Positions 1,466 to 24,649 of a DNA stretch of 32,000 bases are shown here, piece by piece. The position numbers and the translations under genes were made by a program. The stretch comes from Promethearchaeota archaeon (lineage in GTDB: Archaea > Asgardarchaeota > Thorarchaeia > Thorarchaeales > Thorarchaeaceae), in contig JALVPN010000040.1 in NCBI GenBank assembly GCA_027031765.1, positions 121,536-153,535 on the forward strand, in the 5' to 3' direction. The first letter of the stretch is position 1. Each line of letters begins with the position of its first letter. Under the pieces are notes generated by a model, which saw nothing but the letters and a program-made list of their open reading frames with translations, made no database searches and was not told the DNA's origin.

Positions 1466-1829
1466 TTCAGTATACTCCCTTGTCGGTCACACGCAGGGTG
1501 AGTGGATTCCGACGTTGTCAGTTGAAAAAGGTTTTGACATGTGTTCCAACGGACTGTGCAGAACGGAGCCGGGTAACGAAGTTGATGATGGAAACGACCC
1601 CTACTGGCACTGCGGTACCGTGGTGCTGCCAACTTTGACGGGACACCGAATTCGGAGGGTAGTGTAGTACTGAGCTCAGTTTCGATACCCTCGACTAGGG
1701 GTACGAAGTGGAGTGTACAAAACGCCACAACCAACGAGCTCACTAGTGGCAGCGCAGGCCCTCAGCCAACTAGTCCCATGTGCAGGCACTTCATATGATT
1801 CAGGGACAACAATACTGAAACCACACCAC

Positions 1830-1835
1830 TTATAT
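1830..1835 (+). promoter_or_regulatory. Putative TATA box of the AAA+/RHH operon
   Basis: TTATAT about 50-60 bp upstream of the start (GTG 1884 or ATG 1893). Confidence 0.5.
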
Positions 1836-1845
1836 CCGGCCCGCT

Positions 1846-1870
1846 GTATTACACAAACTACTCGTGATAC
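1846..1870. repeat. Heptad pair GTATTAC (1846) / GTGATAC (1864), 18-bp offset
   Basis: Read directly; it lies between the TATA box and the start codon of the AAA+ gene. Confidence 0.65.
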
Positions 1871-1883
1871 GGCTAGGTAGGCT

Positions 1884-2867
1884 GTGCAGACAATGACTAT
1901 TGCAGTCCATGAAAGTGCACTAATACGACACTTCAACACTCGCAGAGAGACCTTACGTGCGTGGGAGGAACGCATTGGTGCCCGCTTCTCACCGTTTCGT
2001 GGGTTCAAGATGCCAGACAGTCGCTTGTACTGTGAACATCCAGATTTTCTGGACAGCATAGTGGACCTGATAATAACCAACGAACGGCACATATTCCTCC
2101 GGGGACCTGTCGGCTCTGGCAAAAGCACGCTGATGTTGCTGGCGCTGAGAGACTTGCCGACTTTGGCAGACCGCCGTGGTAACAAGTTCATTACAGGATA
2201 CGTAGGGATGACAGGGCTCTATGAGAAACAGATGGCGGCCGCAATAGCAGACTCGTTGCGTGTCAAGTACCGCCGGTCATGGGAATCGAGTCAAATCATT
2301 GAGGCTGTGGCGAGAGAGTGCGTCAGGCGGTACGTTGAGGAGCACTGTCGTACGGCGTTGTTCATAGAGGATGTGGCTGACAATCAGGAAGCTGCATTCC
2401 ACAAGCTCCGTTATCTAGCGGATCTCCCAACAGAGGAGATGAAAGAAGAATATGGGGGGGCCCTAGACGAGCCAGTAGTGACTTTGATTATGAGTGGCAC
2501 CATGATGTATTGGAATGCCATGTTGAGCTTCTTGCCGCAGATAGCCGATAGGACAGAACCCCTTGATGTGCCACCATTTGATGACGCGAAGGCAAAGGAG
2601 TTCATAGGACGACGACTGGCATACGCACGCGGTGAGATTGACAGCTTCGACCCTAATGACTTTGACATCTATCCCTTTGAGGAAGAGGCTATCGAGATAA
2701 TAAATGCTGCAGCTAGGGGGAACCCGCGGGACATAAGGATGCTCGCAAGAGGTTGCCAACAGGTGGCTGCTGAGCGGCTCAAGGAAACTGGGGACCCATC
2801 AATTACAGTTGAGATAGCAACACTCGTTGTCGATGCATATTCCGCACTTTTGAAGGAGGTGCAGTGA
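1884..2867 (+). CDS. ExeA/GspA-like AAA+ ATPase (short form, no peptidoglycan-binding or winged-helix tail); start may be ATG 1893
   Basis: FSPF...PD..Y leader, Walker A GPVGSGKS, Walker B variant ALFIEDV, sensor-1 strand LIMSGT, then PFDDAKAKEFIGRRL and FEEEAIEIINAAARGNPRDIRML. This is the ExeA (COG3267-like) layout. Confidence 0.8.
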   Translation: MQTMTIAVHESALIRHFNTRRETLRAWEERIGARFSPFRGFKMPDSRLYCEHPDFLDSIVDLIITNERHIFLRGPVGSGKSTLMLLALRDLPTLADRRGNKFITGYVGMTGLYEKQMAAAIADSLRVKYRRSWESSQIIEAVARECVRRYVEEHCRTALFIEDVADNQEAAFHKLRYLADLPTEEMKEEYGGALDEPVVTLIMSGTMMYWNAMLSFLPQIADRTEPLDVPPFDDAKAKEFIGRRLAYARGEIDSFDPNDFDIYPFEEEAIEIINAAARGNPRDIRMLARGCQQVAAERLKETGDPSITVEIATLVVDAYSALLKEVQ

Positions 2868-3178
2868 CTGTGAGCCTTCTGGGAAAGTACAGGCGTGAGG
2901 AGAAAGAGAGAGGCGAAGAGGAGCCGAAAAGAACACCTGCTGCCACTAGCAGTACACGCGTGGTAAGACGCCGGTCTACGGCCTCTTCAGTTCCCAACAA
3001 GGAGCGGAAAAGCCCGATAATGAGCTTCTCTGTGGCCTCTGACCTGCGTGCCTGTCTGCAGGCCGTCAGGATGGAGAAGGCAATCAATCTGAGCATGTGG
3101 GTTGAACGCACACTTAGGGAGGCTGTAATCAGAGAGTTCCCAGAGATTGCACAGGCTCATCTCCGTAGTGATGCATAG
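2864..3178 (+). CDS. Small protein with a flexible charged N-terminus and a C-terminal ribbon-helix-helix DNA-binding domain
   Basis: GTGA overlap with the ATPase stop. The C-terminus has a strand IMSFSV, helix ASDLRACLQAVRMEK, turn AIN and helix LSMWVERTLREAV, which is the RHH pattern. Confidence 0.7.
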   Translation: MTVSLLGKYRREEKERGEEEPKRTPAATSSTRVVRRRSTASSVPNKERKSPIMSFSVASDLRACLQAVRMEKAINLSMWVERTLREAVIREFPEIAQAHLRSDA

Positions 3179-3276
3179 TGCGACCCGCATATGTCAAGTC
3201 CACTTGTCCCCACCGGCCACTCAATACCCAAAGAAATCACGTCCTACGCCTAACGCTGGAAAACCCAGTCCTACTG

Positions 3277-3292
3277 GTATTAGGAGTAATAC
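3277..3292. repeat. Heptad pair GTATTAG (3277) / GTAATAC (3286), 9-bp offset (can also form a small hairpin)
   Basis: Read directly in the convergent intergenic gap after the RHH gene. Confidence 0.55.
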
Positions 3293-3394
3293 AGCCAGAC
3301 AGCCCTGGATTCCTCTCCATGGTAGCAATCTGGGTGGGTTCCCGGGATTGAAACAGTAGTCGAGGCAGACAAGGTAGTAGGTGACCGCAGAAAG

Positions 3395-4810
3395 TCACAT
3401 GGTGCGTCGTCCTTTCAGCTCCGAGTACTCAACAACCTTCGCGATGGCAAGGCACGCCGTATGAGGGTCATCATAGCAGGGGATACGGTTCATCTCAAGG
3501 AGATCCTTGCCTGGCTTTCCTACATCACCAGCAAGCCAAACACCCACCACGGGCTTGTCTGCACCCGCAAGCCGTGCCCCCTCCAGAGTACCGGCCGCAT
3601 GTTCTGTCTGTGTCATTCCTGCGAAGGTCGGCACGCCACATATTACCAATAGAGTATCGATATTTTCATCACTGAGTAGTAGCTCAGTAGCAACACGGTA
3701 CTCACGGCGTCCGCCGCTTGCCACCACGTCTACGGGGTTGCGAGTGGCGGCCATCGGGGAAAGAATCTGGCGGAGCTCACGGCGCGTTTCCTTGGACAGC
3801 TCAGGTACGTTCAATCCAAAGTACGATGCGGCGTCGGCCGCAAGAACACCTGCACCGCCGGTATTACTGATGATACCAATATTACGGCCACACGGCGAAG
3901 GTTGGTAGTCAAAGAGTTTGCACACCTCAAGCAGTGAGTCGAGGGTAGGAATCATGACGGCCCCGGCTTGGCGAACCATACCTTCGAATATTTTTGCTGA
4001 GCCGGCCAGTGAGCCTGTGTGTGACTGTGTGGCACGACCGCCGGCCTTACTGAGCCCGCCCTTTAGCACTACCACGGGCTTTGCCATTGCGGCCTGTCTG
4101 AGAGACTCGAAGAAAGGACGGCCTTTGTCTACGCCTTCCACATAGATTGCTATGACGTGGGTCCTATCATCTTCTGTGAAATACCTAAGCACCTCTGAGA
4201 AACTGACATCAGCCGCGTTCCCCAAACTCGCAAACTTGCTGACCCCAATCCTCTTCGCACGTGTATTGTATATGGTCATTCCACCAAGAGCACCACTCTG
4301 TGAGAGAAGGGCTATGTTCCCACGTTCTGGCATCATAGTGAAAGTCCCGTTGAAGAGACGGCTGTTCGAAACTCCGACACAGTTGGGGCCTATGATGCGC
4401 ACACCTGCTTCCCGAGCTGCATGCACGAGCTGGTTTTCCAGCTGCTTCCCTTCGGGGCCGGTTTCGCTGAAGCCACCAGAAATTACAACAGCATGGCGTG
4501 CTCCGGCGGCCCGAACCTCGTACATGAGTGCAGGACAGTACTTCGCCGCTACTGCAATGATTACTAGGTCGACTGGCACCGGTAGTTGGCGGAGGCTGGG
4601 GTATGCACGTACGCCCAACACACGCTCGCGACTCCGCGTTACAGGGAACACCTCAACCTCGGACGCAAGGAGATTCATGAGAATCGAGTTGCCTAGCTTC
4701 CGATAGTCGGCTGACGCCCCAACTAGAGCGACTCTGCGTGGATTGAAGAAAGGATCCAAATCATTGTAGGCGTCATATTCGCCGTATGACATAGGCAAGG
4801 GCGACAACAC
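3395..4810 (-). CDS. acdA: Acetate/acyl-CoA ligase (ADP-forming), alpha subunit; exact start uncertain (4810-4792)
   Basis: FFNPRRVALVGAS CoA-binding fold, RIIGPNCVG, SQSGALG, SLGNAADV, phospho-His loop HTGSLAG, NTGGAGVLAAD and NPVDV. Confidence 0.9.
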   Translation of the reverse strand: MLSPLPMSYGEYDAYNDLDPFFNPRRVALVGASADYRKLGNSILMNLLASEVEVFPVTRSRERVLGVRAYPSLRQLPVPVDLVIIAVAAKYCPALMYEVRAAGARHAVVISGGFSETGPEGKQLENQLVHAAREAGVRIIGPNCVGVSNSRLFNGTFTMMPERGNIALLSQSGALGGMTIYNTRAKRIGVSKFASLGNAADVSFSEVLRYFTEDDRTHVIAIYVEGVDKGRPFFESLRQAAMAKPVVVLKGGLSKAGGRATQSHTGSLAGSAKIFEGMVRQAGAVMIPTLDSLLEVCKLFDYQPSPCGRNIGIISNTGGAGVLAADAASYFGLNVPELSKETRRELRQILSPMAATRNPVDVVASGGRREYRVATELLLSDENIDTLLVICGVPTFAGMTQTEHAAGTLEGARLAGADKPVVGVWLAGDVGKPGKDLLEMNRIPCYDDPHTACLAIAKVVEYSELKGRRTM

Positions 4811-4948
4811 ACCTGATTTATGTGTAACTAGTGAAATTCAGTACGGAAGTACTTGTAGACCATTTCGGGGGTTGGGTACAAAAGTGTCATGGGATGTCTG
4901 CAACGTACGCACGGTGTCCGGCCTAAGAGGGGAGGGCAGCGCCGCTCT

Positions 4949-4991
4949 GTAATAGTGCTGTATAGTGTATGGGTCGTATTGCGTGTATTAC
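4949..4991. repeat. Heptad array in 9-bp register: GTAATAG 4949, GTATGGG 4967, GTATTGC 4976, GTATTAC 4985
   Basis: Read directly; offsets are 18, 9 and 9 bp. Confidence 0.6.
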
Positions 4992-5389
4992 GACCATGGA
5001 TGAGCTTTGGACGCGAGCGAGAAACAACTGACATTCAACATTAGAGCAAAGTAGAACGCCAATGTAACTCCACATCTGCTAGAAGCGGTGCAGATTGAGC
5101 CAGACAGATGGCCTATTCGATACCCCGCAGACTTGTCATGAGGACAATCATGTGTGTTGCAGCTTCAAGGGCTAGTGGACTCAGGCGGCAGTTTGCGGCA
5201 CAGAAGCTGCAGAGATATTTCAATGCAAATCGTGCAGCAAGGGGGCAAGAGTACCCACTACGTGTTATCTCAACGGATCTGCGTACGTCAAGTATTCCAA
5301 GCCACCCAGCAACAACAAGGCAGTCAGTGCCGAGTCACGCAGCACACTCATGTGTAGCGGAACTGTAGAATACACTCTGCACCCAAGCG

Positions 5390-5423
5390 GTATTGTTCAT
5401 ATAACAGGTAATACGCGTGATAC
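5390..5423. repeat. Heptad array: GTATTGT 5390, (ATATAAC 5399), GTAATAC 5408, GTGATAC 5417
   Basis: Read directly; 9-bp register. Confidence 0.6.
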
Positions 5424-5746
5424 GTCACGTAGATGCTCCTCTTTGGCGAAACGTCCACGCTCGCCAATTGAAATGGAGCAGGAAGTGGTAGCTGGCAGCA
5501 GACAGAACACCAAACTCTGTAGCAAGAAACCCGGGCCACCGGGGTTCTACGAGGCACTGGAACCGTATAACACTACAACCGAGGCCGTACGTCAATCCGA
5601 CATCACAACGTGGATCACTATCACTACAAGGAACCACAAGTAGCCGACATGCCGGTCACCTTTGGACACACGACATAGGGCGGTAACTACGCAGTACGTG
5701 GGGCTCCATCCATAGGCGAAACCCGCGTGCAAGCCGCCTGCATTCG

Positions 5747-5779
5747 TTAATACTCGTAATACTAGTGATACAGCAATAC
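5747..5779. repeat. Heptad array: TTAATAC 5747, GTAATAC 5756, GTGATAC 5765, GCAATAC 5773
   Basis: Read directly; offsets are 9, 9 and 8 bp. Confidence 0.65.
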
Positions 5780-6063
5780 GGCCAATCCACATCTACAGCA
5801 TGGTGAACCAGGAAGATTCAGCACCCGCTGCTGTTCTAAGATTAGAACTATGTATTCCTGTTGTCAAGAATATAGTGAGTGTGTCGTACCAGACAGAAGC
5901 ATATAGACCACGAGCAATCCAGTCCAACTGCACCGTCCAGCATCTCTATCTCCTCGGAACAGACCTCCAGATTTGGGTACGGTGTCAGAAGGACACTCAG
6001 GTCTGCAAGAGGTACGACACACTCGAGCCCGGTCTACACTCACTACAGGCCAGGCAGTTCTAG

Positions 6064-6615
6064 CTAGTCCAGACGTAGCGCAAGCGGAGACTGCAACAAG
6101 TCCAGTGCGTCAAGAACCACGCGTTCAGCAGCCCTGTACGCTTCAACGTCCTCTGGGGAGAGAGAGTGCCTTGCTGCGAGTGCTTCGCGGATGCTGCGGT
6201 ATGCACCAACCCTAGTCGCTACCTCCTCGAAGGGCCTGAAAATACTGAGCTCAAAGAGGCCCAGATACGCCAGGACGAGCAGGGTATAGATGGAACGCAT
6301 GACATTTCGCCGCGCTTGCTTCAGAGTTCTGTTGAAGGCGCCGCGCGAAACCCCCTTTCCACCGCGCGGCCCTCTACCCCTAAGTGACGCCTTCTGTTCG
6401 TATGAAACGCGGCCCTCTGATGCATCATCTGTGAGGAGATCAATCAACAGTGTTTCGAGCTGCGTGCTGGTCAGACTGGAGCGTTCAAGAAGAATGCGCA
6501 AGATTGGCTCCCGTAGCACAAGGCGCACTTGTGATACCATCTCCGTCAACGACCCGTCATCTTTTCTTTCTTCGTTCAACAGCTCACGCTCCGCCACTGA
6601 TGAAACGGCGCTCAT
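6064..6615 (-). CDS. Conserved archaeal hypothetical protein with an HTH-like core; start moved from 6786 to ATG 6615
   Basis: LLERSSLTSTQLETLLID...KASLR...GVSRGAFNRTLKQARRNVMRSIYTLLVLAYLG resembles an uncharacterised family I recall from TACK/Asgard archaea. The first 57 codons of the track ORF look non-coding. Confidence 0.8.
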   Translation of the reverse strand: MSAVSSVAERELLNEERKDDGSLTEMVSQVRLVLREPILRILLERSSLTSTQLETLLIDLLTDDASEGRVSYEQKASLRGRGPRGGKGVSRGAFNRTLKQARRNVMRSIYTLLVLAYLGLFELSIFRPFEEVATRVGAYRSIREALAARHSLSPEDVEAYRAAERVVLDALDLLQSPLALRLD

Positions 6616-6734
6616 ATTGGCCAATTCACGCGAATCGTCGCTATAAGGCCGTCTGCAAATCCATGTCCACCGGGGGTCCGGGTGGATACAATTCTGTATA
6701 CGGCAGAGCTTAAAGCCATATCTGTGTATGAGGC

Positions 6735-6750
6735 GTGATAGGCGTATTAC
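6735..6750. repeat. Heptad pair GTGATAG (6735) / GTATTAC (6744), 9-bp offset
   Basis: Read directly, between the 6615 start and the 6762 stop. Confidence 0.55.
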
Positions 6751-6761
6751 ACTCGATTCAA

Positions 6762-7265
6762 TTATGGCCGTGTTGGCACCCACCAAGACTCCTCAGGAGG
6801 AACAAATGTAAATGCAAGGACGAGATTGCCACGAACCTGGTCAAACTCATAGACTGCAAACGTTATTGACTCATCATCCCGATGCCACGAAACATATCTG
6901 AGCGCAACTTGACGTCTGAAAAACGCCCGACAATAGCGACGTACCGCGATGAACAGATTGCGATACCGGCGGCGCTGCGACGGGCGGATCCCCCAACGTT
7001 CGAGGATGAACCGGTTCGCGAGGGAGTTGCTAGATATGAGGATTGGATGCATCACCCTCGTTGACCGACCAGCAACAGCAGACTCAAGCATGCGTCTAAG
7101 GCAAGCAGGAATCCCGGCAAGCACAGATGGGGTCGCGGCTAGGTCTACTGCACCAGTCCCTCCAGAATTGACGGATGTCATCACCATCAGAAGGATAGTT
7201 TGGTCATCCGCAATAAAAACACCCCAAAATTCGCCGCCGCCACAACTCTCTGCATGACAATGCAC
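6762..7265 (-). CDS. Hypothetical basic protein (true start probably downstream, near M27-M29)
   Basis: Protein-like, Arg-rich core MHPILISSNSLANRFILERWGIRPSQRRRYRNLF followed by beta-rich FAVYEFDQVRGNLVLAFTFV; co-oriented with the 6064 gene. Confidence 0.65.
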   Translation of the reverse strand: MHCHAESCGGGEFWGVFIADDQTILLMVMTSVNSGGTGAVDLAATPSVLAGIPACLRRMLESAVAGRSTRVMHPILISSNSLANRFILERWGIRPSQRRRYRNLFIAVRRYCRAFFRRQVALRYVSWHRDDESITFAVYEFDQVRGNLVLAFTFVPPEESWWVPTRP

Positions 7266-7364
7266 GACTTATCCAACGCATCAATGATGTCATGAATCGT
7301 CATGCAATCAGAGAGGAACCGACAGAGCACCACTGGTACATGCGACACGGGAATGTGACAAGTT

Positions 7365-7398
7365 GTATTGGTACTCATGTGAGTAATACGACCAATAC
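7365..7398. repeat. Heptad array: GTATTGG 7365, GTAATAC 7383, CCAATAC 7392
   Basis: Read directly; offsets are 18 and 9 bp, in the divergent gap before hypF. Confidence 0.6.
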
Positions 7399-7484
7399 GA
7401 ATATTATCAGTGGAATATAGTGCACGATTTGCCACTTCATCGTATTAATATCGGCACAAGAAATAGAGCGGCTAGGGACTCCCT

Positions 7485-9833
7485 GTGAAACAACAGGCGA
7501 CAATTCACATCAGAGGAATCGTCCAGGGTGTGGGGTTCAGGCCCTTCGTGTATCGTGTAGCCACGCAAAACAGACTCAAGGGTTACGTGCTGAACCTCGG
7601 CGATGCAGGTGTTAGAGTTGTCCTTGAAGGCGAGCGGAACAACATAGAGGCCACAATCAGACAGATCAAGAATCACCCACCGTCAATCGCAAGAATCGAC
7701 GACATGGAAATTCGCTGGTCTTACGCCACAGGACAGTTTCCCGATTTCAGAATTGCCAAGTCCAGCAGCACAGCTACTGCAGATGTGACCCGGATTCCGC
7801 CTGACATCGCAACATGTGAGGACTGCGTCCGCGACATCTTCGACCCAAACTCTCGGTGGTATCAGTATCCATTTACGTCCTGCGCTGCTTGCGGGCCAAG
7901 ATACTCCACCATTACGGATTTGCCATACGACAGACCAAACACCACCATGGCTGACTTCCCATTGTGTAATACATGTCATAGCAGTTATACAGACCCTGGG
8001 AATAGACGGTACCATGCTCAGACAACGGCATGCCCCATATGTGGCCCGCGCTACGTACTGCTGGACAAGGAAGGTAACACAGTTGCCACCGAGAGGCCAC
8101 TCCTTGCCGCGGCCCACCTGCTTGCAGATGATAGAGTGCTCGCTTTACATGGAACCTCCGGAACCCACCTTGTCACTATAACTAGCACTCCAGAACCGAT
8201 TTACCACTTGCGTGAACGAAAGAGGCGGCCCCAGAGACCCTTGGCCGTCATGGCCCGTGGCATGAGCGCAGTCGCTGCCTTCGCCACTCCTACAACGAGA
8301 GAAGCAGAGGAGATGCAGTCATGGCGTAGGCCAATCGTCCTAGTCAGCCGCCGGAGTGTGCCAATGTCCGGGTCTACGGTCACAGCTGAGTCGCTTGACG
8401 CCATAGCGCCCGGCCTCGATACAATTGGCGTGATGCTGCCCTACTCTCCAGCGCACCATATCCTCTTCAACACCCTAAATGAGGACGCCCTAGTGATGAC
8501 AAGCGCAAACCCCACGGGCCTGCCAATGTATATCGATTCCTCTGACATCGTGAAACACCTGCATGAGATAGCAGACTACTTTCTTGTCCACAACCGCAGA
8601 ATACATCAGCGGTGTGACGACTCAGTACTCAAATACATCGCCGGCAGACGCGTCTTCATCCGTCGCTCGAGGGGATACGTGCCCGAGCCGATCCATACAG
8701 ACTGGCGACCCAAAGGTACCACAGTCGCAGCCCTCGGCCCTGAAGAAAAGGTCACAGGGACAATCGCCAAGGCTGGTGTGTTTTACCCAACACAACACAT
8801 AGGTGATACAGACAGCATCGAAAGCATCGAGTTCCTCACTCACGCAATGAACCACCTGAAGCATCTGTTGAGAATTGAACGGTTCGATGCCATTGCGTGT
8901 GACCTGCACCCACAGTTCCTCACTACCGAGACCGCCGAAATCATTGCTCAGGAAACGAACACCTCCCTCACACGAGTGCAACACCACCATGCGCACCTCG
9001 CGAGCCTCATAGTAGATAGCAACCTTTCTAGTAATACCCGTATCGTGTGTATTACCGCTGATGGATATGGCTATGGCCCCAACGGGGAAGCTTGGGGCGG
9101 TGAGGTACTCGTGGGCGGTCTCAAAGATGTCACTTGGTACGGAGGTCTCATGCCCAGCAGGTTGTCAGGAGGCGACCTCGCCGCAAGATATGCCACTAGG
9201 AGCCTCATCGGGATTGCCACACCCATTTCCAGTGAAGAGCAGCTCCTGACAATTGCAGGAGGAAACAAGATCTCAGAACGAAAACGCCTGACTGAATCAA
9301 CTCTTCAACTACTAGTACATTCAGCTGAAAGAGGTGTGAACGCAGTTACCACCTCGAGTGCAGGGCGATTTCTCGATGCCGTGTCTGTAGCTCTGGGCAT
9401 ATGCTCAGAAAACACATACGACGGCGAATGTCCAATGAAACTCGAATCAGTGGCCAGAGACAACGGGACAAGGATCAGACCGCACTACATTGACCGACGA
9501 GGTAGCCCCCTCATAGACACTGGTGCCGCACTTCAGCAAGTCCTGGAACTGATACAACAGCGGGTGCCACGGGCAGGAATAGCTTTCGCTGCACAGTGGT
9601 TCCTTGGTGAGGCACTTGCCCAGATTGCGTGTATGGCCTCCCAGGAGCAGTCAATACCTCAGGTTGGGTTTTCCGGAGGAGTGGCACTCAACAGGAATAT
9701 CACACGAGCCGTGGAGAGAGTCGTTAGCGACCATGGAGTGCAACTCCTGCGCCACTGGCGAGTCCCACCTGGAGATGGCGGAGTTTCCGTTGGGCAGAGT
9801 GCAGTCACCATGGCCCAGCTAGCACTTGAGTGA
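7485..9833 (+). CDS. hypF: Carbamoyltransferase HypF ([NiFe]-hydrogenase maturation)
   Basis: Acylphosphatase GIVQGVGFRPFVYR, four CxxC zinc-finger pairs, RRYHAQ, LVMTSAN, RRSRGYVP, DLHP, QHHHAH, DGYGYG, TSSAGRFLDA and PPGDGGVSVGQ. Confidence 0.97.
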   Translation: MKQQATIHIRGIVQGVGFRPFVYRVATQNRLKGYVLNLGDAGVRVVLEGERNNIEATIRQIKNHPPSIARIDDMEIRWSYATGQFPDFRIAKSSSTATADVTRIPPDIATCEDCVRDIFDPNSRWYQYPFTSCAACGPRYSTITDLPYDRPNTTMADFPLCNTCHSSYTDPGNRRYHAQTTACPICGPRYVLLDKEGNTVATERPLLAAAHLLADDRVLALHGTSGTHLVTITSTPEPIYHLRERKRRPQRPLAVMARGMSAVAAFATPTTREAEEMQSWRRPIVLVSRRSVPMSGSTVTAESLDAIAPGLDTIGVMLPYSPAHHILFNTLNEDALVMTSANPTGLPMYIDSSDIVKHLHEIADYFLVHNRRIHQRCDDSVLKYIAGRRVFIRRSRGYVPEPIHTDWRPKGTTVAALGPEEKVTGTIAKAGVFYPTQHIGDTDSIESIEFLTHAMNHLKHLLRIERFDAIACDLHPQFLTTETAEIIAQETNTSLTRVQHHHAHLASLIVDSNLSSNTRIVCITADGYGYGPNGEAWGGEVLVGGLKDVTWYGGLMPSRLSGGDLAARYATRSLIGIATPISSEEQLLTIAGGNKISERKRLTESTLQLLVHSAERGVNAVTTSSAGRFLDAVSVALGICSENTYDGECPMKLESVARDNGTRIRPHYIDRRGSPLIDTGAALQQVLELIQQRVPRAGIAFAAQWFLGEALAQIACMASQEQSIPQVGFSGGVALNRNITRAVERVVSDHGVQLLRHWRVPPGDGGVSVGQSAVTMAQLALE

Positions 9834-9865
9834 CACGACTCAGCCAGAACGCCACACGGCAGACA

Positions 9866-10477
9866 TCACGAACCACCCGATACCGCTGCCACTCCCAAAT
9901 CGAGCGCGGCTGAGTTTATAGCCTCATAGCGACCTCCAAAGGCACTCCGCACTACAGCCCTAGCAGTTCCAACACCAAAAGGAAGCAGACCTAGGCCTAG
10001 AACGGCACCAAACATTACCATGTTGACTGCACGAGGACTGCCAGCCTTCTGGGCAAGGGTCATTGCATCGACCTTCGTGACCTCAACTCCAAACGGCGAC
10101 ATCAGACGGTCAATCTCGGCCTCGGACGGGTACCTATCATGACCCATCGAGACCGCAACTGGATACTGGACATGCGTGTTCATCACCACATGGCCACCGG
10201 GACGTACAAGGGAAATCTCGCGTAGTGTTTCTAGCGGTTCAAAACCGATGATGACGTCACCAGTGCCAATATCAACAATAGGCCCCAAGGCGCCATCCCC
10301 AATGCGGACGAATGATACAACATGTCCGCCCCGCTGAGCCATTCCATGGATCTCACCAACACGGACATTGTTTGACTCGTTCAGAGCAGCCTGCGCCATT
10401 ATCTGGGCCAGCGTCAATACACCCTGACCGCCCACACCGGTCACAACAATATTACGTGTAATACCAGTCCTAGCCAT
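9866..10477 (-). CDS. iorB: Indolepyruvate:ferredoxin oxidoreductase beta subunit
   Basis: GVGGQGVLT, EIHGMAQRGGHVVSFVRIG, FEPLE and NMVMFGA; abuts iorA (TGA-ATG). Confidence 0.95.
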   Translation of the reverse strand: MARTGITRNIVVTGVGGQGVLTLAQIMAQAALNESNNVRVGEIHGMAQRGGHVVSFVRIGDGALGPIVDIGTGDVIIGFEPLETLREISLVRPGGHVVMNTHVQYPVAVSMGHDRYPSEAEIDRLMSPFGVEVTKVDAMTLAQKAGSPRAVNMVMFGAVLGLGLLPFGVGTARAVVRSAFGGRYEAINSAALDLGVAAVSGGS

Positions 10478-12370
10478 TCACACACCTCCCTGTTTGATTG
10501 CCCCCTGAGGACAGACATGTACACAGCTACCGCAGTAGTTGCAAAGGGCTGGATCAATGGCAGCCTGACCCGTTTCCTGATTCAGATACATGGCAGGGCA
10601 GGAGAACCGGTTCAGACAACGCCGACATCCATTGCAGAGGTCCACATCAACGTAGTACGGCTCTGGAAACACACCCGTACTCCGCCGTTCAGCCGCAGTG
10701 AGCAGAGCGCATGGTGCACGCGAGACCAAGACACCTGGGGCACGGTTGTCCCTTACCCACTGCACTAGCTGACGCACCTCAGCGACTACTTCAGATAGTG
10801 GCTGAAACGGGTCTACAGTCCTAACATACTCCACGCCGAGACCCCTACACACATCCTCGATTCTTAGGGGCGGTACAGACTCCTGCATCCCAGTGAGTCC
10901 AGTTCCCGGATGTGGCTGGTGGCCGGTCATAGCAGTTGTACGATTGTCGAGGACAACCAGACAGATTGGATGGCGGTTGTACACAGCATTGGCGAGACCC
11001 GGCAGTCCTGATGCGAAGAAGGTGCTGTCCCCAATCGTCGCTACGACATCCTGGCCGGTCACGCGCGCAATGCCGCACGCAGTTGTTATTGAAGAACCCA
11101 TGTCAAAGAGGATGTCCGCTGTTTCAAGCGGAGGTGCAATGCTGAGAGTATAGCACCCAATATCCGACGGATATATCGCCTTCCCACGAGTCGCAGCACG
11201 GATTGCATAGTACGTAGCACGGTGCGGGCAGCCAGGACATAGCAGAGGAGGACGCGGTGGCAAGTCACGCACCGAACGGGCCCTCTCCTCAGCCGCATCC
11301 CAGTCAATCGGCGACTCGACACCAAGCACACCGGTCATGGCCCGCATCACAATACGAGTGTTGAACTCAAACGTCCGGGGGAGCACCCCCTGTTCCTTTC
11401 CAACAATACGGACATCAATACTATGAAGCTGTGCCAGACGGCGCAGGTGGGTTTCAAGGACAGGTTCGAGCTCTTCAACTACGAGAACAGTCGGATGTGC
11501 TTCTAGAAACCGTGCAATCATATCTTCAGGAACAGGATGAGTCATCCCGAGTTTCAATACAGCTGCACTGATACTTAGGGCCTCAATGGCCTCCCGCACA
11601 TAGTTGTAGGAAACCCCACTGGTCACAACACCAAACTCCCCCTCACCAGTGACAAAGTTCAGAGGAGTCGCTTCAGAAACCTCGCGTGCACGCTCGATTT
11701 GCCTCAACAGTGCAGGATGCTGCTTCCGTGCTACAGCAGGGATTGGGACGAAACGCAAGGGCTCCTTCTTAAACACTACATGTTCAGGAGGGCGTGCAAT
11801 TGGACCAAGGGGCACAGGAGCCCGGGTATGGTTCACACGAGTGGTGGTTCTCAGCAACACCGGCAGCTCAAGCTCCTCTGAAAGATCATACGCAGCAAGA
11901 ACCATAGCCTTGGCCTCTGCGGGATCAGCAGGCTCCAGCATGGGCATGTTGGCCATCAGTGCATAGTACCGGCTGTCATTTTCGTTCTGACTGCTCCACA
12001 TGCTGGGGTCGTCCGCAACTACAATGACCATGCCCCCACGCACCCCAACATATGCAAGTGAGAGGAACGGATCAGCAGCAACATTCAGGCCAGGGCCCTT
12101 ACATACCATCATTGACCGGACTCCTGCAACAGCGGCCGCACCGGCAACCTCAATCGCAACCTTTTCGTTGGCACTGAACTCAAAGTAGAAGTTCTCCATG
12201 TGCGGAGCCATCTGCGTGAGACTGTTTCCAATCTCGCTGCTCGGCGTCCCCGGGTACAATGCAACAAGCCGTACGCCCGCTTCGAGAACTGCACGCGCAA
12301 TGGCCTCATTTGCCAACAACAACAGCGTTTCCCCCACTGCGTCCTGCAACAGTTCCTTTGCTTTCACCAA
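10478..12370 (-). CDS. iorA: Indolepyruvate:ferredoxin oxidoreductase alpha subunit
   Basis: YPGTPSSEI, NEKVAIEVA, GLNVAADP, RPPLLCPGCPHR, SDIGCY, TPP motif GDSTF...DNRTTAMTG and a C-terminal 2x[4Fe-4S] ferredoxin. Confidence 0.97.
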   Translation of the reverse strand: MVKAKELLQDAVGETLLLLANEAIARAVLEAGVRLVALYPGTPSSEIGNSLTQMAPHMENFYFEFSANEKVAIEVAGAAAVAGVRSMMVCKGPGLNVAADPFLSLAYVGVRGGMVIVVADDPSMWSSQNENDSRYYALMANMPMLEPADPAEAKAMVLAAYDLSEELELPVLLRTTTRVNHTRAPVPLGPIARPPEHVVFKKEPLRFVPIPAVARKQHPALLRQIERAREVSEATPLNFVTGEGEFGVVTSGVSYNYVREAIEALSISAAVLKLGMTHPVPEDMIARFLEAHPTVLVVEELEPVLETHLRRLAQLHSIDVRIVGKEQGVLPRTFEFNTRIVMRAMTGVLGVESPIDWDAAEERARSVRDLPPRPPLLCPGCPHRATYYAIRAATRGKAIYPSDIGCYTLSIAPPLETADILFDMGSSITTACGIARVTGQDVVATIGDSTFFASGLPGLANAVYNRHPICLVVLDNRTTAMTGHQPHPGTGLTGMQESVPPLRIEDVCRGLGVEYVRTVDPFQPLSEVVAEVRQLVQWVRDNRAPGVLVSRAPCALLTAAERRSTGVFPEPYYVDVDLCNGCRRCLNRFSCPAMYLNQETGQAAIDPALCNYCGSCVHVCPQGAIKQGGV

Positions 12371-12446
12371 CCTGCCGACCTCGCGCCTTCGTCACAATGC
12401 CTCCCCAACAACTCGCACTATCAGTTTTATGGTGTCGGCCCACAGT

Positions 12447-12462
12447 TAGAACACGTGTTCTA
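12447..12462. repeat. Perfect 16-bp palindrome TAGAACACGTGTTCTA
   Basis: Self-complementary; its core GAACACGTGTTC recurs at 12681-12692. Confidence 0.85.
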
Positions 12463-12472
12463 TTCGTAAAGA

Positions 12473-12493
12473 CCCCTCTGTTTCGTGTGGAAC
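12473..12493 (-). other. Origin recognition box (ORB): GTTCCACACGAAACAGAGGGG on the minus strand
   Basis: Matches the archaeal ORB pattern GTTCCA...GAAAC plus G-string; 18/21 identical to the element at 12610. Confidence 0.85.
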
Positions 12494-12500
12494 TGGCAAG

Positions 12501-12590
12501 ACACAAAATATACCAATTAACCAAACATATTTATATCAGTTTTCAGTACGTGCCTTAAGCTCTTTCTAAATATATAACAACAAGTACATA
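12501..12590. other. AT-rich tract, candidate DNA-unwinding element (DUE)
   Basis: 66 of 90 bases are A/T by hand count (73%) against a roughly 45% AT background; lies between the inverted ORBs. Confidence 0.7.
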
Positions 12591-12609
12591 CAGGTCCAGC
12601 TCTTCAAGA

Positions 12610-12630
12610 GTTCCACTCGAAACAATGGGG
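12610..12630 (+). other. Origin recognition box (ORB): GTTCCACTCGAAACAATGGGG
   Basis: ORB core plus G-string, inverted relative to 12473-12493. Confidence 0.85.
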
Positions 12631-12631
12631 T

Positions 12632-12655
12632 GTATCACGGTACGGGTTGTATTAC
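12632..12655. repeat. Heptad pair GTATCAC (12632) / GTATTAC (12649)
   Basis: Read directly, immediately after the right ORB; the 17-bp offset is slightly off the 9-bp register. Confidence 0.45.
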
Positions 12656-12680
12656 TCGTGCTACAACGTTACGCTCTATG

Positions 12681-12692
12681 GAACACGTGTTC
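12681..12692. repeat. 12-bp palindrome GAACACGTGTTC (second copy)
   Basis: Identical to 12449-12460; overlaps the stop codon of the 12691 gene. Confidence 0.8.
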
Positions 12693-12996
12693 ATACAGCC
12701 ACGGGCAACTCGCGTTCGATGCTAAAGGCCCTCACTTTGAGGATATCACGGTAGTTGGCAAAGAGCTGGTCAAACTGATCCTTCATATGGACTGGTACCA
12801 TTATGGCTGAGTCGGTGACTACCTCGCATAGCGGTGACGAGTCGACTAGTCCCGGCTTTCGTCGCGTTTTGAGGCCGCCCCGTGTCTTCCATGTATATGT
12901 GTAGCCATAGAGCTCCTTTGTGAATGCAATCCTCCTGGCATTCCGTTGGCGTGAATTGATACAATCGTAGACATAGAGCACAGTTTCCATTGTCAA
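12691..12996 (-). CDS. Small hypothetical protein, possibly Cas2/VapD-like ferredoxin fold; start TTG 12996 or ATG 12990
   Basis: About 100 aa with a first strand VLYVYD ending in Asp, a helix, a basic insert WKTRGGLKTRRKPGL, and DSAIMVP..........F. Confidence 0.7.
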   Translation of the reverse strand: MTMETVLYVYDCINSRQRNARRIAFTKELYGYTYTWKTRGGLKTRRKPGLVDSSPLCEVVTDSAIMVPVHMKDQFDQLFANYRDILKVRAFSIERELPVAV

Positions 12997-17045: not shown

Positions 17046-17066
17046 GTTCCACTGGAAACAGGGGGG
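17046..17066 (+). other. Origin recognition box (ORB): GTTCCACTGGAAACAGGGGGG
   Basis: Near-canonical ORB with a six-G string; 18/21 identical to 12610-12630. Confidence 0.8.
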
Positions 17067-20644: not shown

Positions 20645-22468
20645 ATGTGCGGTATAATCGGCGTTGTTCAGGTTCGGGGTAACGTCGCTCCATTTCTCCA
20701 CCAAGCATTGAAACGTCTTGAATACCGGGGTTACGATTCGGTCGGCATCACCACTATTTCTGGGAACAAGCTGTTCGTGAAGAAGGATAAAGGCAAGATT
20801 GATGAGGTCCACAAGAAGCTCGACTTGGACGACTTGCCAGGGAGTGTTGGTATTGGCCACACACGTTGGGCCACACACGGAGTACCATCTCTCCTGAATG
20901 CTCATCCCCACTTCGACTGTACCGGTCAAGTTGCAGTGGTTCATAACGGGGTGATTGACAACTTTCTCGAGCTCCGACAAGAGCTCGCTGAACGCGGACA
21001 TGTGTTCAACTCGGAAACCGACACCGAGGTCATCCCCCACATGATTGAGGAGCACCTCCGTCAGGGTTGCAGTCTTGCAGCCGCCCTCAAGCACGTAACA
21101 ACAAGGATTCATGGCACGTATGCAATTGTCGCGATGTCAACAAGCGAGCCAGACAAGATTGTGTGCACGCGCGATGGCAACCCCTTGGTCATAGGGCGCG
21201 GTATGAACGCCTCATACGTTTCCTCCGACATTCCGGCATTTCTCCCTATGACAAACAGGATTATCCTCCTCCTCGACGGTGAGATTGCCATCATCACTGC
21301 AACCGAGGTCACCATCGAGAAGCTTTCAGATGGGGCGCCGGTTGTTCGAGATGTTGTAAAGATCAGCTGGACTGCTGACCAGGCACAGAAAGGTGGCTTT
21401 CCTCATTTCATGCTGAAGGAAATCCATGAGCAACCAGATGCAATACGCAATACACTCAGGCTGCGGCCTGATGTAATCCGCAGAGGTGCCGAGTTGTTAT
21501 CCGACGCGGCACGCATCTTCCTATTGGCAATGGGTACATCAGGTCATGCAGCGATGGCGGCACGCTACATGTTCTCGTCCCTTGCGAGAACTGTTCCCAC
21601 ATTTGAACTTGCAAGCGACTTTGCAGACATTGTCGGGCGCACCCTGACTGACCAGGACTGCATAGTGGCAATAACACAGTCTGGCGAAACTACTGATACC
21701 ATTTCTGCTGTGAAGTATGCACGGTCGTTCGGGACTCATGTCCTTGCCATTACAAATGTTGTCGGGAGCTCAATAACTCGCTTGGCTGACCACGTAGTGA
21801 TTACCCAAGCCGGCCCAGAAATCGGAGTCGCAGCCACCAAGACGTTTATGGTTCAACTCACTTCGCTTGCCCAGATTGCCCTTGCGCTTGGAGAAATGAA
21901 GGGGGTTCTCGATGCGGATGTCTTGCAGGACAAACGGAAGGCTCTTGAGGCAGTTCCGGACATTGTTTCCAACGTGATATCACTCCAAGAGGAGCGTGCG
22001 AGGAGACTGGCCGGCTTTTACTATGATGCCCCGAGTCTTCTCTTCTTGGGCCGTGGGATATCAATCGCTACTGCGAGGGAGGGGGCCCTCAAGCTCAAGG
22101 AAATTGCATACAACCACGCGGAGGCGTATTCTGCTGGCGAGTCCAAGCACGGTCCAATTGCGCTTGTGGAGCCGGGCTATCCAGTCATCTTTGTGGCGCC
22201 GCGTGATGAAACACACAGCAAGATTGTCGGCAACGTAATGGAGATGAAGGCAAGGGGTGCCTCCATAGTTTCGGTCATCGATTCGAGTGACCAAGAGATT
22301 GCGCACCTATCGGATCATGTCTTTGCTGTTCCTAGTGGCGTTCCCGCAGAGTTCTCTGTCATGCCGTATGTTGTCCCACTACAACTGTTCAGCTACTATG
22401 TTGCTCGTAGGAAGGGCTATGACCCTGACAAGCCAAGAAACCTTGCCAAGTCGGTTACGGTTCTCTAG
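20645..22468 (+). CDS. glmS: Glutamine--fructose-6-phosphate aminotransferase (isomerizing); start set to ATG 20645 (MCGI)
   Basis: N-terminal nucleophile MCGIIG, LEYRGYDS, GHTRWATHG, HNGVIDN, TQSGETTDT, EGALKLKEI, GESKHGP and the C-terminal RNLAKSVTV. Confidence 0.98.
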   Translation: MCGIIGVVQVRGNVAPFLHQALKRLEYRGYDSVGITTISGNKLFVKKDKGKIDEVHKKLDLDDLPGSVGIGHTRWATHGVPSLLNAHPHFDCTGQVAVVHNGVIDNFLELRQELAERGHVFNSETDTEVIPHMIEEHLRQGCSLAAALKHVTTRIHGTYAIVAMSTSEPDKIVCTRDGNPLVIGRGMNASYVSSDIPAFLPMTNRIILLLDGEIAIITATEVTIEKLSDGAPVVRDVVKISWTADQAQKGGFPHFMLKEIHEQPDAIRNTLRLRPDVIRRGAELLSDAARIFLLAMGTSGHAAMAARYMFSSLARTVPTFELASDFADIVGRTLTDQDCIVAITQSGETTDTISAVKYARSFGTHVLAITNVVGSSITRLADHVVITQAGPEIGVAATKTFMVQLTSLAQIALALGEMKGVLDADVLQDKRKALEAVPDIVSNVISLQEERARRLAGFYYDAPSLLFLGRGISIATAREGALKLKEIAYNHAEAYSAGESKHGPIALVEPGYPVIFVAPRDETHSKIVGNVMEMKARGASIVSVIDSSDQEIAHLSDHVFAVPSGVPAEFSVMPYVVPLQLFSYYVARRKGYDPDKPRNLAKSVTVL

Positions 22469-24137
22469 GCATGCTGTGTAGCCTCGACAGTATCTGTTGC
22501 GCATTCAATTCACCTCGATGTCCACGCATCCCCCGTAGTATCGTCCCCAATGCTTCACTGTAGATTTCCTCCGGGCTCATATCCCATTGCTCCCACGTAG
22601 CAGTTGCCATTGCACCGTCATCCGCCCACGGGATTGATTTCAAGGGTTCTTGACCAACCGCACAGAGTGTGTTGAGTCCCGCAAACTCAATCTGCCCCGC
22701 GACTTGTCGGCGACGGATTTCGGTGACTTCCTGAACCCTCCTTGGTGTTGTCGGGCCGAGCCGTCCGAGAGTGACTATGATATCCATATGTGCAATTGCT
22801 GAGAGCTCGACATGATGGCTCGTAGCCCACCGCGTTATCAGTGCCGAAGCGGAACCACTATGACATGTCTGTAGTGTCTTCAGTCCTGCAGTGACAGCTT
22901 GGAATAGCGCTCGGCTGTGCTCTGCAGTCTGGACTTCTCCCAGTATCAGGTAGTCTGGCGACCTGTGTAATGTCTTGACTATCTCATCGCTCTTAGAGAA
23001 GCCACCCGTCGCCTCATCGACAGGAGATACACGAAACCTTGCCTGGTGCTCTCCATCTCGGAGTCTGCTCTCAACCGCATCCTCTATGTATACCTTCCTC
23101 CACGCCTGTGGAACCACTGCGTCCAGAGCATTCAGTAGCGTCGTCTTTCCAGTTCCAGGTGCTCCGGTAATCGTTACATTGAGTCGCAGAACTATTGCCA
23201 TTGCCAGCAGGGCTGCGGTTTCTGGAATCATCGTTCCATTTGAAACCAGATCCAACAGTGAGAACTGTCTAGCTCTTGCTCTCCGGATTTGCATCTGAAA
23301 GCCGTCTGTGGCAAGCGGAGCGGTGGAAACCGCAAACCTAAGTGGCACTCCTGCTAGATGCAGGTCACACTTGAGTGAAGGGTTGCGCCTGTCAAGGTGG
23401 AGGTTACTCTCCGCCCGCAACAACGTCACCAGCTTTGGAATCAGTCCACGGGCCACCGAGAACCCTGCTACGCACCTGCCAAACCTCTGGTGGTCAAGGT
23501 AGACTGGCACATCTGGACGGTCAACATAGACTTCCTCTATGTGCTCGTCTAGGAATAACGGCATAAAAGGGCCCAGTGGGGTGCTCTCGTAGGCAACAAA
23601 CTGGGCAATCTTCTCCTTGGTTTCTGGCTGCAACTGTGGTATGACGCTCTCCAGATATCGAATCACCTGCCCCCTCACTTCAGTAATACGTGCGGAAAGC
23701 CTCACACGTCGGCTGACAAGTTCAGCGGTGCTCTGCACCACATGTGATTTTGCTTGTTGGAGCAGGGTATGCTCAAGATGAGAACGCAGACGCGGTATTG
23801 CGGAATATGTGGGTGTTGTAGCGTCATTTTCCTGTCGCACAACCACGAGGTATGGTTCAACCCGATACGCGTCCACAATACCTCTTGCCCATTCCACCGG
23901 ATTCCGGGTATGGGCAGCTACAGATACCGCCTCCCACTTTCCGCCAGTCCATGGGGCCATCACTTCGTCATCGCCCGTCGATGCGGGTATGTATAGCAGC
24001 TTACGATCTGGCTCAACTATAATGATTTGTCCGGCCCTGTCTGTTTCAGCAATGCGTATGCATTTCTTGCCCTGCCTTGACTTGCAGGAGGAGCATTCAC
24101 CTCGTGTGCAACTAATGACTGTTGCTCTCGGGGGCAT
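22455..24137 (-). CDS. VirB11/CpaF/TadA/FlaI-family secretion or pilus ATPase
   Basis: IEEVYVD, Walker A GAPGTGKTT, Asp box YIEDAVES, Walker B HRSPDYLILGEVQ and His box TLQTCHS; GGCGGTGA RBS. Confidence 0.9.
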   Translation of the reverse strand: MPPRATVISCTRGECSSCKSRQGKKCIRIAETDRAGQIIIVEPDRKLLYIPASTGDDEVMAPWTGGKWEAVSVAAHTRNPVEWARGIVDAYRVEPYLVVVRQENDATTPTYSAIPRLRSHLEHTLLQQAKSHVVQSTAELVSRRVRLSARITEVRGQVIRYLESVIPQLQPETKEKIAQFVAYESTPLGPFMPLFLDEHIEEVYVDRPDVPVYLDHQRFGRCVAGFSVARGLIPKLVTLLRAESNLHLDRRNPSLKCDLHLAGVPLRFAVSTAPLATDGFQMQIRRARARQFSLLDLVSNGTMIPETAALLAMAIVLRLNVTITGAPGTGKTTLLNALDAVVPQAWRKVYIEDAVESRLRDGEHQARFRVSPVDEATGGFSKSDEIVKTLHRSPDYLILGEVQTAEHSRALFQAVTAGLKTLQTCHSGSASALITRWATSHHVELSAIAHMDIIVTLGRLGPTTPRRVQEVTEIRRRQVAGQIEFAGLNTLCAVGQEPLKSIPWADDGAMATATWEQWDMSPEEIYSEALGTILRGMRGHRGELNAQQILSRLHSMPREP

Positions 24138-24649
24138 CAGTATTCACCGCCTGTCGGGGGCGTGTCGAGTATTACTGGGAATTTGACCGGCACCTGTGCC
24201 AGACGTACCTGTGTTTTGGTGTCAGACATGCTCCGCATGTCGACCCGGGATTGACTATGACGAGCGTAATCATTGGCGACTACAGCGCAGCAAGTCGAGT
24301 CCGCGTGCGCATCTCTCCAGCCAGATTCGGACTGAGCCGTAGCGAGTCGTCACATTGAGTTCTTTGGCCGAATAATAAAAGGGCCACCGAACGCGGATGT
24401 CATGTATCTCACAGCGTCACTCATACTACTGCCCTGCATTGATGGAATCTGGACGTTTCTGCTTGGTGACAGGCTGTGGCGCTGGTGGTACCTCTTGCAC
24501 AGGTTGTGTCAGAGTAGAGTTGGCGAGATATGACATCTGACCAACTACACGGTTGCTGTTTGCCTGTGTGCTTCCTGTTTGTTTGTGGTTTCTGAATTGC
24601 TGTAGTGTGTCGGCGTGTTTCGTTTTGAGGTCTGTCGGCTAGTCTGACA

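Follow-up and report, generated by a model that had tools for sequence, protein, structure and literature searches.

Can an AAA+ ATPase take the place usually held by ParA in a DNA-organizing system with a small ribbon-helix-helix (RHH) adaptor? The question is raised by a two-gene operon of a Promethearchaeota archaeon (Thorarchaeia; Thorarchaeaceae), which we analyzed within a window of 32,000 nucleotides (assembly GCA_027031765.1, contig JALVPN010000040.1, positions 121,536 to 153,535 of the forward strand; coordinates below are those of the window). A preliminary description of this DNA had proposed that the operon, composed of an ExeA-type AAA+ ATPase gene and an RHH gene, is a partition or chromosome-organizing system with a different motor. 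Given the gene layout, the predicted folds, the repeats and the origin linkage described below, we tentatively favor, at a little less than an even chance, an origin-proximal, centromere-like or domain-organizing nucleoprotein system that is built like ParF-ParG and SegAB and employs an AAA+ ATPase.

The layout of the locus follows that of the type Ib partition cassettes (ParF-ParG of TP228 and delta-omega of pSM19035) and of Sulfolobus SegAB, in which a two-gene operon encodes an NTPase and then a protein of about 100 residues. As in those systems, the N-terminus of the small protein is unstructured and its C-terminal domain is probably an RHH (by way of the orthologue P0266, see below), and short repeats are positioned at the promoter of the operon itself and again close by. 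SegB, the RHH protein of SegAB, stimulates the SegA ATPase through its unstructured N-terminus, and its first 21 residues are needed for this effect (PMC8682754). The same parallel had been drawn at the outset from an NTPase, from a small RHH protein whose N-terminal tail is flexible, and from short repeats at their own promoter, and this architecture is confirmed and strengthened here, with the RHH fold as a probable part of it. The locus departs from the type Ib and SegAB systems in its NTPase, predicted to be an AAA+ protein of the Orc/Cdc6-MuB-TnsC group and not a deviant-Walker-A ParA, in a third conserved protein (X), and in about 11 repeat arrays that extend over about 11 kb up to the predicted replication origin (oriC).

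Two co-directional open reading frames (ORFs), 1884–2867 and 2864–3178, are found in the ORF listing of the window. Because the roughly 120 close homologues of the ATPase are all 324 residues long and begin MTIA, the start is placed at ATG 1893 (MTIA...) and not at GTG 1884. The alignment of homologues shows an intact Walker A motif (GPVGSGKST), and sensor 1 (SGT), the invariant arginine finger (R220) and sensor 2 (R279, within G-N-P-R) are likewise all intact. The Walker B motif is FIEDV and follows the family pattern hhhh[E/D]D, so that the unusual IEDV pointed out earlier is a real and retained feature. Pfam AAA_22 gave a borderline, sub-threshold match of 26.4 bits (cut-off 27), followed by weaker matches to AAA_16, ORC-CDC6-like and NB-ARC; some homologues carry a precomputed PF13401 match, and the automatic JGI label of the homologues is "ExeA".

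The AlphaFold (AF2) model of the ATPase is confident (predicted local distance difference test, pLDDT, 89). Foldseek searches with this model placed archaeal Orc1/Cdc6, eukaryotic ORC/Cdc6 and ShCAST TnsC at the top ranks (E 6e-10 for 1w5t), and exhaustive comparison with VIA-align gave Z scores of 19.4 to Cdc6 (7jgr_G), 17.4–19.1 to archaeal Orc1/Cdc6 (1w5s 19.1, 2qby 18.3), 17.3 to the MuB-DNA filament, 17.0 to the TnsC filament and 13–15 to generic AAA+ proteins. By both methods the protein carries the AAA+ module of the initiator clade. In the model the chain stops after the AAA lid, at residue 324, and no Pfam match to Cdc6_C (PF09079) was found on it, the two PF09079 matches of the genome sitting elsewhere. 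Since the nearest folds are Orc1/Cdc6, MuB and TnsC and there is no winged-helix domain, the ATPase is, on its predicted structure, a DNA-associated-type AAA+ protein of the initiator/MuB/TnsC group and not a secretion ExeA.

Comparison with each of these families defines the position of the ATPase more closely. Orc1/Cdc6 is the best structural match of the base and lid (Z 17–19), and the two share a pair of helices between β2 and β3, the site of the initiator-specific motif, as well as a G-x-P-R-type sensor 2 and a gene location beside origins of the origin recognition box (ORB) type. Unlike Orc1/Cdc6, the ATPase lacks the C-terminal winged-helix domain, its identity to these proteins is 12–15%, its Walker B reads ED, and its targeting to DNA would need the separate RHH and X subunits. 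The likeness to MuB, TnsC and TniB (Pfam AAA_22) lies in the fold (Z 15–17 to the DNA-bound MuB and TnsC filaments) and in the weak AAA_22 match; ATPases of this kind are regulated by short peptides of their partner proteins. Unlike them, the ATPase is accompanied by no transposase and no element ends, and its gene is single-copy and syntenic across the whole class. With ExeA/GspA of type II secretion it shares an AAA_22-type P-loop domain and a similar N-terminal lead-in, in contrast to which it has no transmembrane segment, no peptidoglycan-binding domain (no such Pfam match) and an archaeal host, and an ExeB/secretin partner is absent among its neighbors (RHH, ADP-forming acetyl-CoA synthetase-like (ACD), AtpD and hypF). 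Of the original label, "AAA+" is thus retained and "ExeA-type" is not. The statement that the ATPase is not a ParA is borne out by the Walker A sequence, by the AAA+ sensor 1, arginine finger and sensor 2, and by the AAA+ fold. A ParA/SegA identity was considered and rejected, as the protein has neither the deviant Walker A (KGGxxK[ST]) nor the SIMIBI fold.

For the small protein the most probable start is GTG 2870, because its homologues begin MSLLGKY and a Shine-Dalgarno sequence (GGAGGTG) is present at 2853–2859; the database entry for the window's copy, P0121, has 102 residues. With this start, only 2 nt separate the ATPase stop from the small-protein start, which makes the literal GTGA overlap at 2864 doubtful; of the translationally coupled pair proposed earlier, both ORFs exist and the overlap is the part in doubt. 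The family alignment divides the protein into an invariant N-terminal peptide, a variable charged linker and a conserved strand-helix-helix C-terminus. The peptide reads S-L-L-G-K-Y-R-K-E-E, with L6, K8, Y9 and R10 invariant, and so what had been described as a charged, Arg-rich N-terminus is indeed a flexible tail with a basic element, the element being a discrete conserved peptide and not merely an Arg-rich stretch. The monomer model (pLDDT 63) contains helices at residues 57–72 and 76–91, and residues 17–40 have pLDDT <50. The RHH assignment comes from the orthologue P0266 of family f13, which matches Pfam RHH_1 at 23.2 bits, above the cut-off of 20.5, and is homologous to the small-protein family over its full length (hhalign probability 98.3%). 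Foldseek with the low-confidence monomer model returned no meaningful match, and no match was obtained in a profile search of the small protein against PDB sequences.

The N-terminal peptide also occurs in other protein contexts beside homologues of the ATPase. On the metagenome contig L006, which encodes a 40%-identical ATPase homologue with a separate 66-residue RHH-like gene upstream, the ATPase gene is followed, with a 4-nt overlap, by a gene for a KaiC-family ATPase (L006:1576–2472), at the N-terminus of which the peptide, here of the form (S/V)LSKY(R/K)K, is repeated three times in tandem (VLSKYRK, VLSKYKK and VLSKYKK). On contig L039 a 30%-identical ATPase homologue is followed by a protein beginning MGSSLMAKYK. 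A search of the window's own genome found the peptide at the N-terminus of no other protein. Because the peptide is found on different domains, always encoded directly after the ATPase gene, we infer from these sequences that SLLGKYRK docks on the ATPase. Prediction of the complex, with both the ATPase and the small protein supplied as alignments, gave a score of 0.00, which counts neither way.

The pair is kept together across the Asgard archaea, with the ATPase and RHH genes adjacent in all 23 loci read and a gap between them of −4 to +2 nt in 21 of 21 orthologous loci examined. It is present in single copy in 79 of 87 Thorarchaeia genomes (22 of the 24 high-quality ones), at about 80% identity and in a fixed syntenic position. 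In a survey of 332 Asgard genomes, 7 of 30 families, the Thorarchaeial one and six others, were found to contain the pair, and it was present in none of the 118 genomes of the largest family. Since phmmer returned 26 matches at E ≤ 0.001 among 1.8 billion cluster representatives, the family is a narrow one. Within its neighborhood the ATPase is the most conserved gene product, with 79.6% identity to its L001 orthologue (a comparison of two genera), against 74% for ACD, 67% for AtpD, 54% for HypF, 52% for the RHH protein and 48% for X. Co-occurrence with transposases or secretion genes, which had been named as an observation that would speak against partition, was not seen in the loci read: no secretins were present, and no transposase or integrase was found in the window or in loci L001–L007. 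A PADLOC search with the ATPase, the RHH protein and X gave no defense-system match. From the gene context we rejected readings of the pair as part of a mobile element or a secretion system.

The cis-acting side of the locus consists of heptads of the form GTRWTAC, referred to here as iterons. The preliminary description had noted heptads at 1846/1864 and 3277/3286, and these are present and far above chance; the first two are the outer units of a three-unit promoter array, and the second two belong to another three-unit array. In all, the sites form eleven arrays of 2–4 units each between 1846 and 12660, reaching oriC. Twenty heptads were observed in window positions 1800–12700, compared with 3.1–3.5 expected from composition-matched Markov models (0 of 300 simulations reached 20), and their density is 1.83 per kb in this zone versus 0.21 per kb genome-wide. 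All heptad pairs of the genome at spacings of 9 nt (four) and 18 nt (three) fall in the window, between 1846 and 9055, and among all 2-kb bins of the assembly the three with the highest density adjoin one another in this zone. A genome-wide promoter motif was considered for the heptads and rejected, the paired patterns being confined to this zone. Since roughly one heptad in two is located within an ORF, the heptads cannot be promoter elements only. The stretch 4811–6063 has no credible ORF in an otherwise dense region; the equivalent stretch of L001 holds a 409-residue ORF of no known family, of which no homologue was found in the gene-free stretch of the window.

The promoter array is conserved across genera. 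About 20 of 21 Thorarchaeial loci carry it in the form TGTAWTACA-N3-ACTAC-TT-GTGATAC, and the full pattern has a single match in the 2.95-Mb genome, at the window's own operon. In nearly all orthologous loci an A/T-rich TTATA/TTTAT box lies 10–25 nt upstream, and because of this distance from a TATA-like box the element covers or just follows the expected transcription start. In about 15 of the 21 orthologous loci, heptads also occur close to the RHH stop codon, at a distance of no more than about 50 nt. In other genera, heptad-pair positions lie near the ATPase gene in G003 (5 of 5 within 15 kb), G025 (13 of 16, from −8.5 to +14 kb) and G058 (2 of 3). A de novo search in family f13 gave GTATTA as the hexamer with the strongest local clustering, with 9 copies within 300 nt, and its copies occupy an iteron-dense gap of about 1 kb between the RHH gene and X, equivalent to the window's ORF-free stretch. 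In f16, GATATC iterons lie between the ORB pair and the operon; in f15, GTTAAC arrays lie beyond the ORB pair, and the operon promoter carries five GGTATC/GATATC units at spacings of 7–13 nt, mostly 13 nt. The type of RHH β-strand changes along with these promoter sites: P-I-M-S-F-S-V or P-V-I-S-A-T-V (the I/V-S-S/T type) accompanies GTAWTAC in f1 and f13, and an Arc-like strand, F-N-V-R-M-P, accompanies GATATC/GGTATC in f15 and f16. Because of this covariation, the RHH protein is favored as the binder of the promoter iterons.

A predicted origin at a distance of about 10 kb had been noted in the preliminary description and proved real as a sequence feature. The pattern TTCCA-N3-GAAA-N3-6-GGGG, which we take to match the ORB consensus of archaeal origins, was searched genome-wide and gave only three matches in the 2.95-Mb assembly, two of them forming an inverted pair (12473 and 12611) and one at 17047 (17047–17066). 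The inverted repeat of the pair (I4) is 87% complementary, and the core between its arms has a G+C content of 0.43–0.45. Since the last array abuts the right ORB, the iteron zone runs from the operon to oriC. An ORB/G-string layout of archaeal origins has been described in a review (PMC4010727). The third ORB lies 4.4 kb from the inverted pair. There is no orc1/cdc6 gene beside the ORBs of the window, the nearer Cdc6 paralogue being about 27 kb from the ORB pair and about 36–37 kb from the AAA gene, and an AAA-to-Cdc6 spacing of 35–36 kb is conserved in G003, G025 and G058.

Linkage to an origin recurs across the Asgard families that carry the pair. Of five genomes checked, four (G025, G003, G058 and G001) have ORB boxes 7–15 kb from the ATPase gene, and none were found near it in the fifth, G023. 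Inverted ORB pairs lie 0.9–5.4 kb from the ATPase gene in f15, f16 and f26, and the best-scoring orc1/cdc6 gene lies 2.8–10 kb from it in six genomes of five families (f2, f13, f15, f16 and f26), two of these genomes being closed. Taken over f1, f2, f13, f15, f16 and f26, ORB pairs or the best orc1/cdc6 gene are thus found 0.9–15 kb from the ATPase gene, in agreement with the origin proximity that had been suggested as a check of the pair across Asgard genomes.

A third component, missed earlier, emerged from the f15 and f16 loci, in which the operon runs on into a gene of about 170 codons. Its product, X, is homologous to the minus-strand ORF 6064–6786 of the window, where X is taken as 183 residues (6064–6615) because of the conserved part and the starts of homologues. 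X homologues are present beside the AAA-RHH pair in f1, f2, f13, f15, f16 and f26, and X belongs to the module. Its invariant motif, G-V-(S/T)-x-x-A-F-x-R-x-L-x-Q-A, resembles a helix-turn-helix. No Pfam match was found for X, a profile search against PDB sequences gave noise only, and ESM Atlas returned "hypothetical protein" clusters only, apart from a weak indication of Sigma70_r4 that came from 14% of the proteins in the cluster at rank 23 (score 0.79). Because family and structure searches lent it no support, the helix-turn-helix reading of X is one of sequence pattern alone.

Table 1. Positions of the proposed module, its repeat arrays and the predicted origin in the window
Feature	Position	Strand	Remarks
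TATA-like box CTTATATC	1829–1836	+	Putative promoter element of the operon
Promoter array, putative operator	1846–1870	+	Three 7-mers in 9-bp register: GTATTAC-AC-AAACTAC-TC-GTGATAC
AAA+ ATPase, 324 aa	1893–2867	+	Predicted Orc1/Cdc6-MuB-TnsC-like core with N-terminal helix, without winged-helix domain
Small adaptor protein, 102 aa (104 if GTG 2864)	2870–3178	+	SLLGKYRK peptide, disordered linker, probable C-terminal RHH
Array directly downstream of the operon	3268–3292	+	GTCCTAC-TG-GTATTAG-GA-GTAATAC
Array inside the ACD gene	3861–3885	+	
ORF-free 1.25-kb stretch, candidate cis-acting core	4811–6063	.	Arrays at 4949–4991, 5400–5423 and 5747–5779
Protein X, ~183 aa, third conserved component	6064–6615	-	Motif GVSRGAFNRTLKQARRNV, helix-turn-helix-like by eye only
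Array upstream of X	6726–6750	+	
Array in the intergenic region upstream of hypF	7364–7400	+	
Array inside hypF	9031–9055	+	
Iteron pair inside the POR gamma gene	10448–10464	+	
Inverted ORB pair, predicted Orc1/Cdc6-type oriC	12472–12494 and 12609–12631 (span 12472–12631)	.	AT-rich core between the boxes
Last array, abutting the right ORB	12632–12660	+	

Several further genes lie in the neighborhood. In 495–1465, a gene for ATP synthase subunit D stands apart from any ATP synthase operon and is preceded by one for a 92-residue hydrophobic protein; in Thorarchaeia these two genes are conserved neighbors of the module, and in f2 (L002) they run in the same direction as it does. Between X and hypF lies a minus-strand ORF of 167 codons (6762–7265) of no known family, where L001 has a 137-codon ORF. 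On the other side of the origin (22455–29981), a T2SSE-type ATPase gene adjoins one for a TFIIB/zinc-ribbon-like protein, together with a gene for a HerA/FtsK-like protein of 1270 residues. In f13 the T2SSE and zinc-ribbon pair is positioned 1.5–4 kb upstream of the AAA+ gene (L004:1945–4506), and the T2SSE/zinc-ribbon genes may be part of a wider conserved origin-proximal neighborhood. The window has a G+C content of about 53%, versus 59% for the whole assembly. A look-up of sequencing runs listed one DNA data set, from a hydrothermal vent metagenome, and no RNA data set.

In the nucleoprotein system that we favor, the three proteins would organize the DNA next to oriC and would probably help to segregate the oriC region. 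RHH dimers are predicted to bind cooperatively to arrays of 3–4 quasi-palindromic GTRWTAC units in 9-bp register. The array over the operon's own transcription start region would autorepress the operon, and about ten further arrays, spread over about 11 kb from the operon to the ORB-flanked origin, would form a multi-site, centromere-like complex. The flexible linker of the RHH protein would present the invariant SLLGKYRK peptide to the AAA+ ATPase, which may, in the way of Orc1/Cdc6, MuB and TnsC, bind double-stranded DNA in the form of an oligomer or filament that depends on ATP. With ED in place of DE in its Walker B motif, the ATPase is expected to be slow, and the peptide would control its assembly or its hydrolysis. 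X would act as a further DNA-binding or bridging subunit. A partition function of the whole is what we infer from this arrangement.

A number of observations weigh against this proposal. Unlike the type Ib and SegAB systems, the module is known here from sequence and predicted structure alone. The known roles of AAA+ ATPases in this clade are those of initiators, of loaders and of selectors of transposition targets, not of partition motors, and proximity to an origin is equally expected for a replication factor. Two MinD/ParA-family genes are present elsewhere in the genome, so that a Walker-type system is possible; a search for a SegAB-like operon found no RHH gene beside either of them. The small protein of the window has no Pfam match, and its low-confidence monomer model contains no β-strand. 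The heptad-pair pattern shows no excess over a reversed-pattern control in G023 and was not found in G001 (family f2). Family f15 keeps a GTAATAC/GTATTAC pair upstream of the operon despite its different RHH strand, and the X motif is conserved there; X, and not the RHH protein, could bind the GTAWTAC heptads, as its helix-turn-helix-like pattern would allow. Much of the linkage within Thorarchaeia is inherited synteny and not independent evidence.

The main rival is control of the replication origin, in which the RHH protein and X would target the Orc/Cdc6-like AAA+ protein to iterons by oriC, where it would help or restrain initiation; it might assemble together with Orc1/Cdc6, act as a loader or remodeler, or serve as a sink or inactivator of the initiator in the manner of Hda/datA. 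Origin regulation fits the same data nearly as well as partition does, and taken by itself we consider it rather unlikely. The closest folds of the ATPase are those of Cdc6 and Orc1, ORB pairs (f15, f16, f26) and the best orc1/cdc6 genes lie at the short distances given above, and the last array of the window directly abuts the right ORB. In L006, moreover, the peptide tags a KaiC/DnaB_C-like RecA-fold ATPase, which recalls loader-helicase pairs. The Thorarchaeia arrays, however, are spread over 11–25 kb and into coding DNA instead of being concentrated at the origin, and the module is absent from most Asgard families, which do have Orc1/Cdc6. The similarity to Cdc6 is moreover at the level of the clade only, given the low identity cited above, and is common to MuB and TnsC.

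A purely transcriptional role, which we judge quite improbable, would make the RHH protein (with X) an autorepressor and local regulator of fermentation genes (ACD, POR and hypF), with the ATPase as a modulator. This would account for the overlap of the conserved promoter array with the predicted transcription start region downstream of the TATA-like box, for the intergenic arrays upstream of ACD, X and hypF, and for the presence of hypF beside the module in f1, f2, f13 and f15. It would not account for the heptads inside ORFs, for three arrays in a 1.25-kb stretch without a gene to regulate, or for the absence of paired sites from the rest of the genome. The metabolic neighbors also change between families while the origin linkage persists, and a local repressor would not be expected to have as its accessory an Orc/MuB-like AAA+ protein whose conservation exceeds that of ATP synthase subunit D. 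Very improbable, and disfavored by us, is a mobile-element, defense or toxin-antitoxin module or remnant, composed of a TnsC/TniB-like ATPase and an RHH antitoxin-like protein. AAA_22-type ATPases do include TniB and TnsC, TnsC and MuB are among the best fold matches, and RHH proteins are common antitoxins. Against these stand the single copy, fixed synteny and high identity in 79 of the 87 Thorarchaeia genomes, the loci read, in which no transposase or integrase was seen, and the PADLOC result for the three proteins.

The combination of an NTPase, an RHH adaptor and iterons is a known layout, for which the ATPase class and the origin linkage are unprecedented. Our literature search turned up no account of a module of this kind, the archaeal systems found being all of the ParA type, and to our knowledge the described archaeal segregation systems (SegAB, AspA-ParBA and HpaAB) all use ParA-type ATPases. 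There is a realistic chance that the module is a new class outright. The fuller proposal of a new class of partition or origin-domain machinery, in which an Orc/Cdc6-MuB-like AAA+ protein replaces ParA as the DNA-bound NTPase, is driven through a short docking peptide on an RHH adaptor bound to the iterons and works with X, the whole being chromosomal and tied to oriC in several Asgard lineages, is somewhat unlikely.

Chromosome organization and segregation are largely unknown in archaea, and in the Asgard archaea especially. The module described here is all but universal in one Asgard class and occurs in six further families; it is tied to ORB-type origins and under stronger purifying selection than its housekeeping neighbors. 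Its parts are small and soluble-looking and its cis sites are defined to the base, so that the hypothesis can be addressed directly in vitro without cultivation. If the module serves to segregate or compact the origin region, it would add a partition motor of a new class to the ParA, ParM and TubZ types; if it controls initiation, it would represent a split relative of Orc/Cdc6, guided by an adaptor, among the prokaryotes most closely related to eukaryotes.

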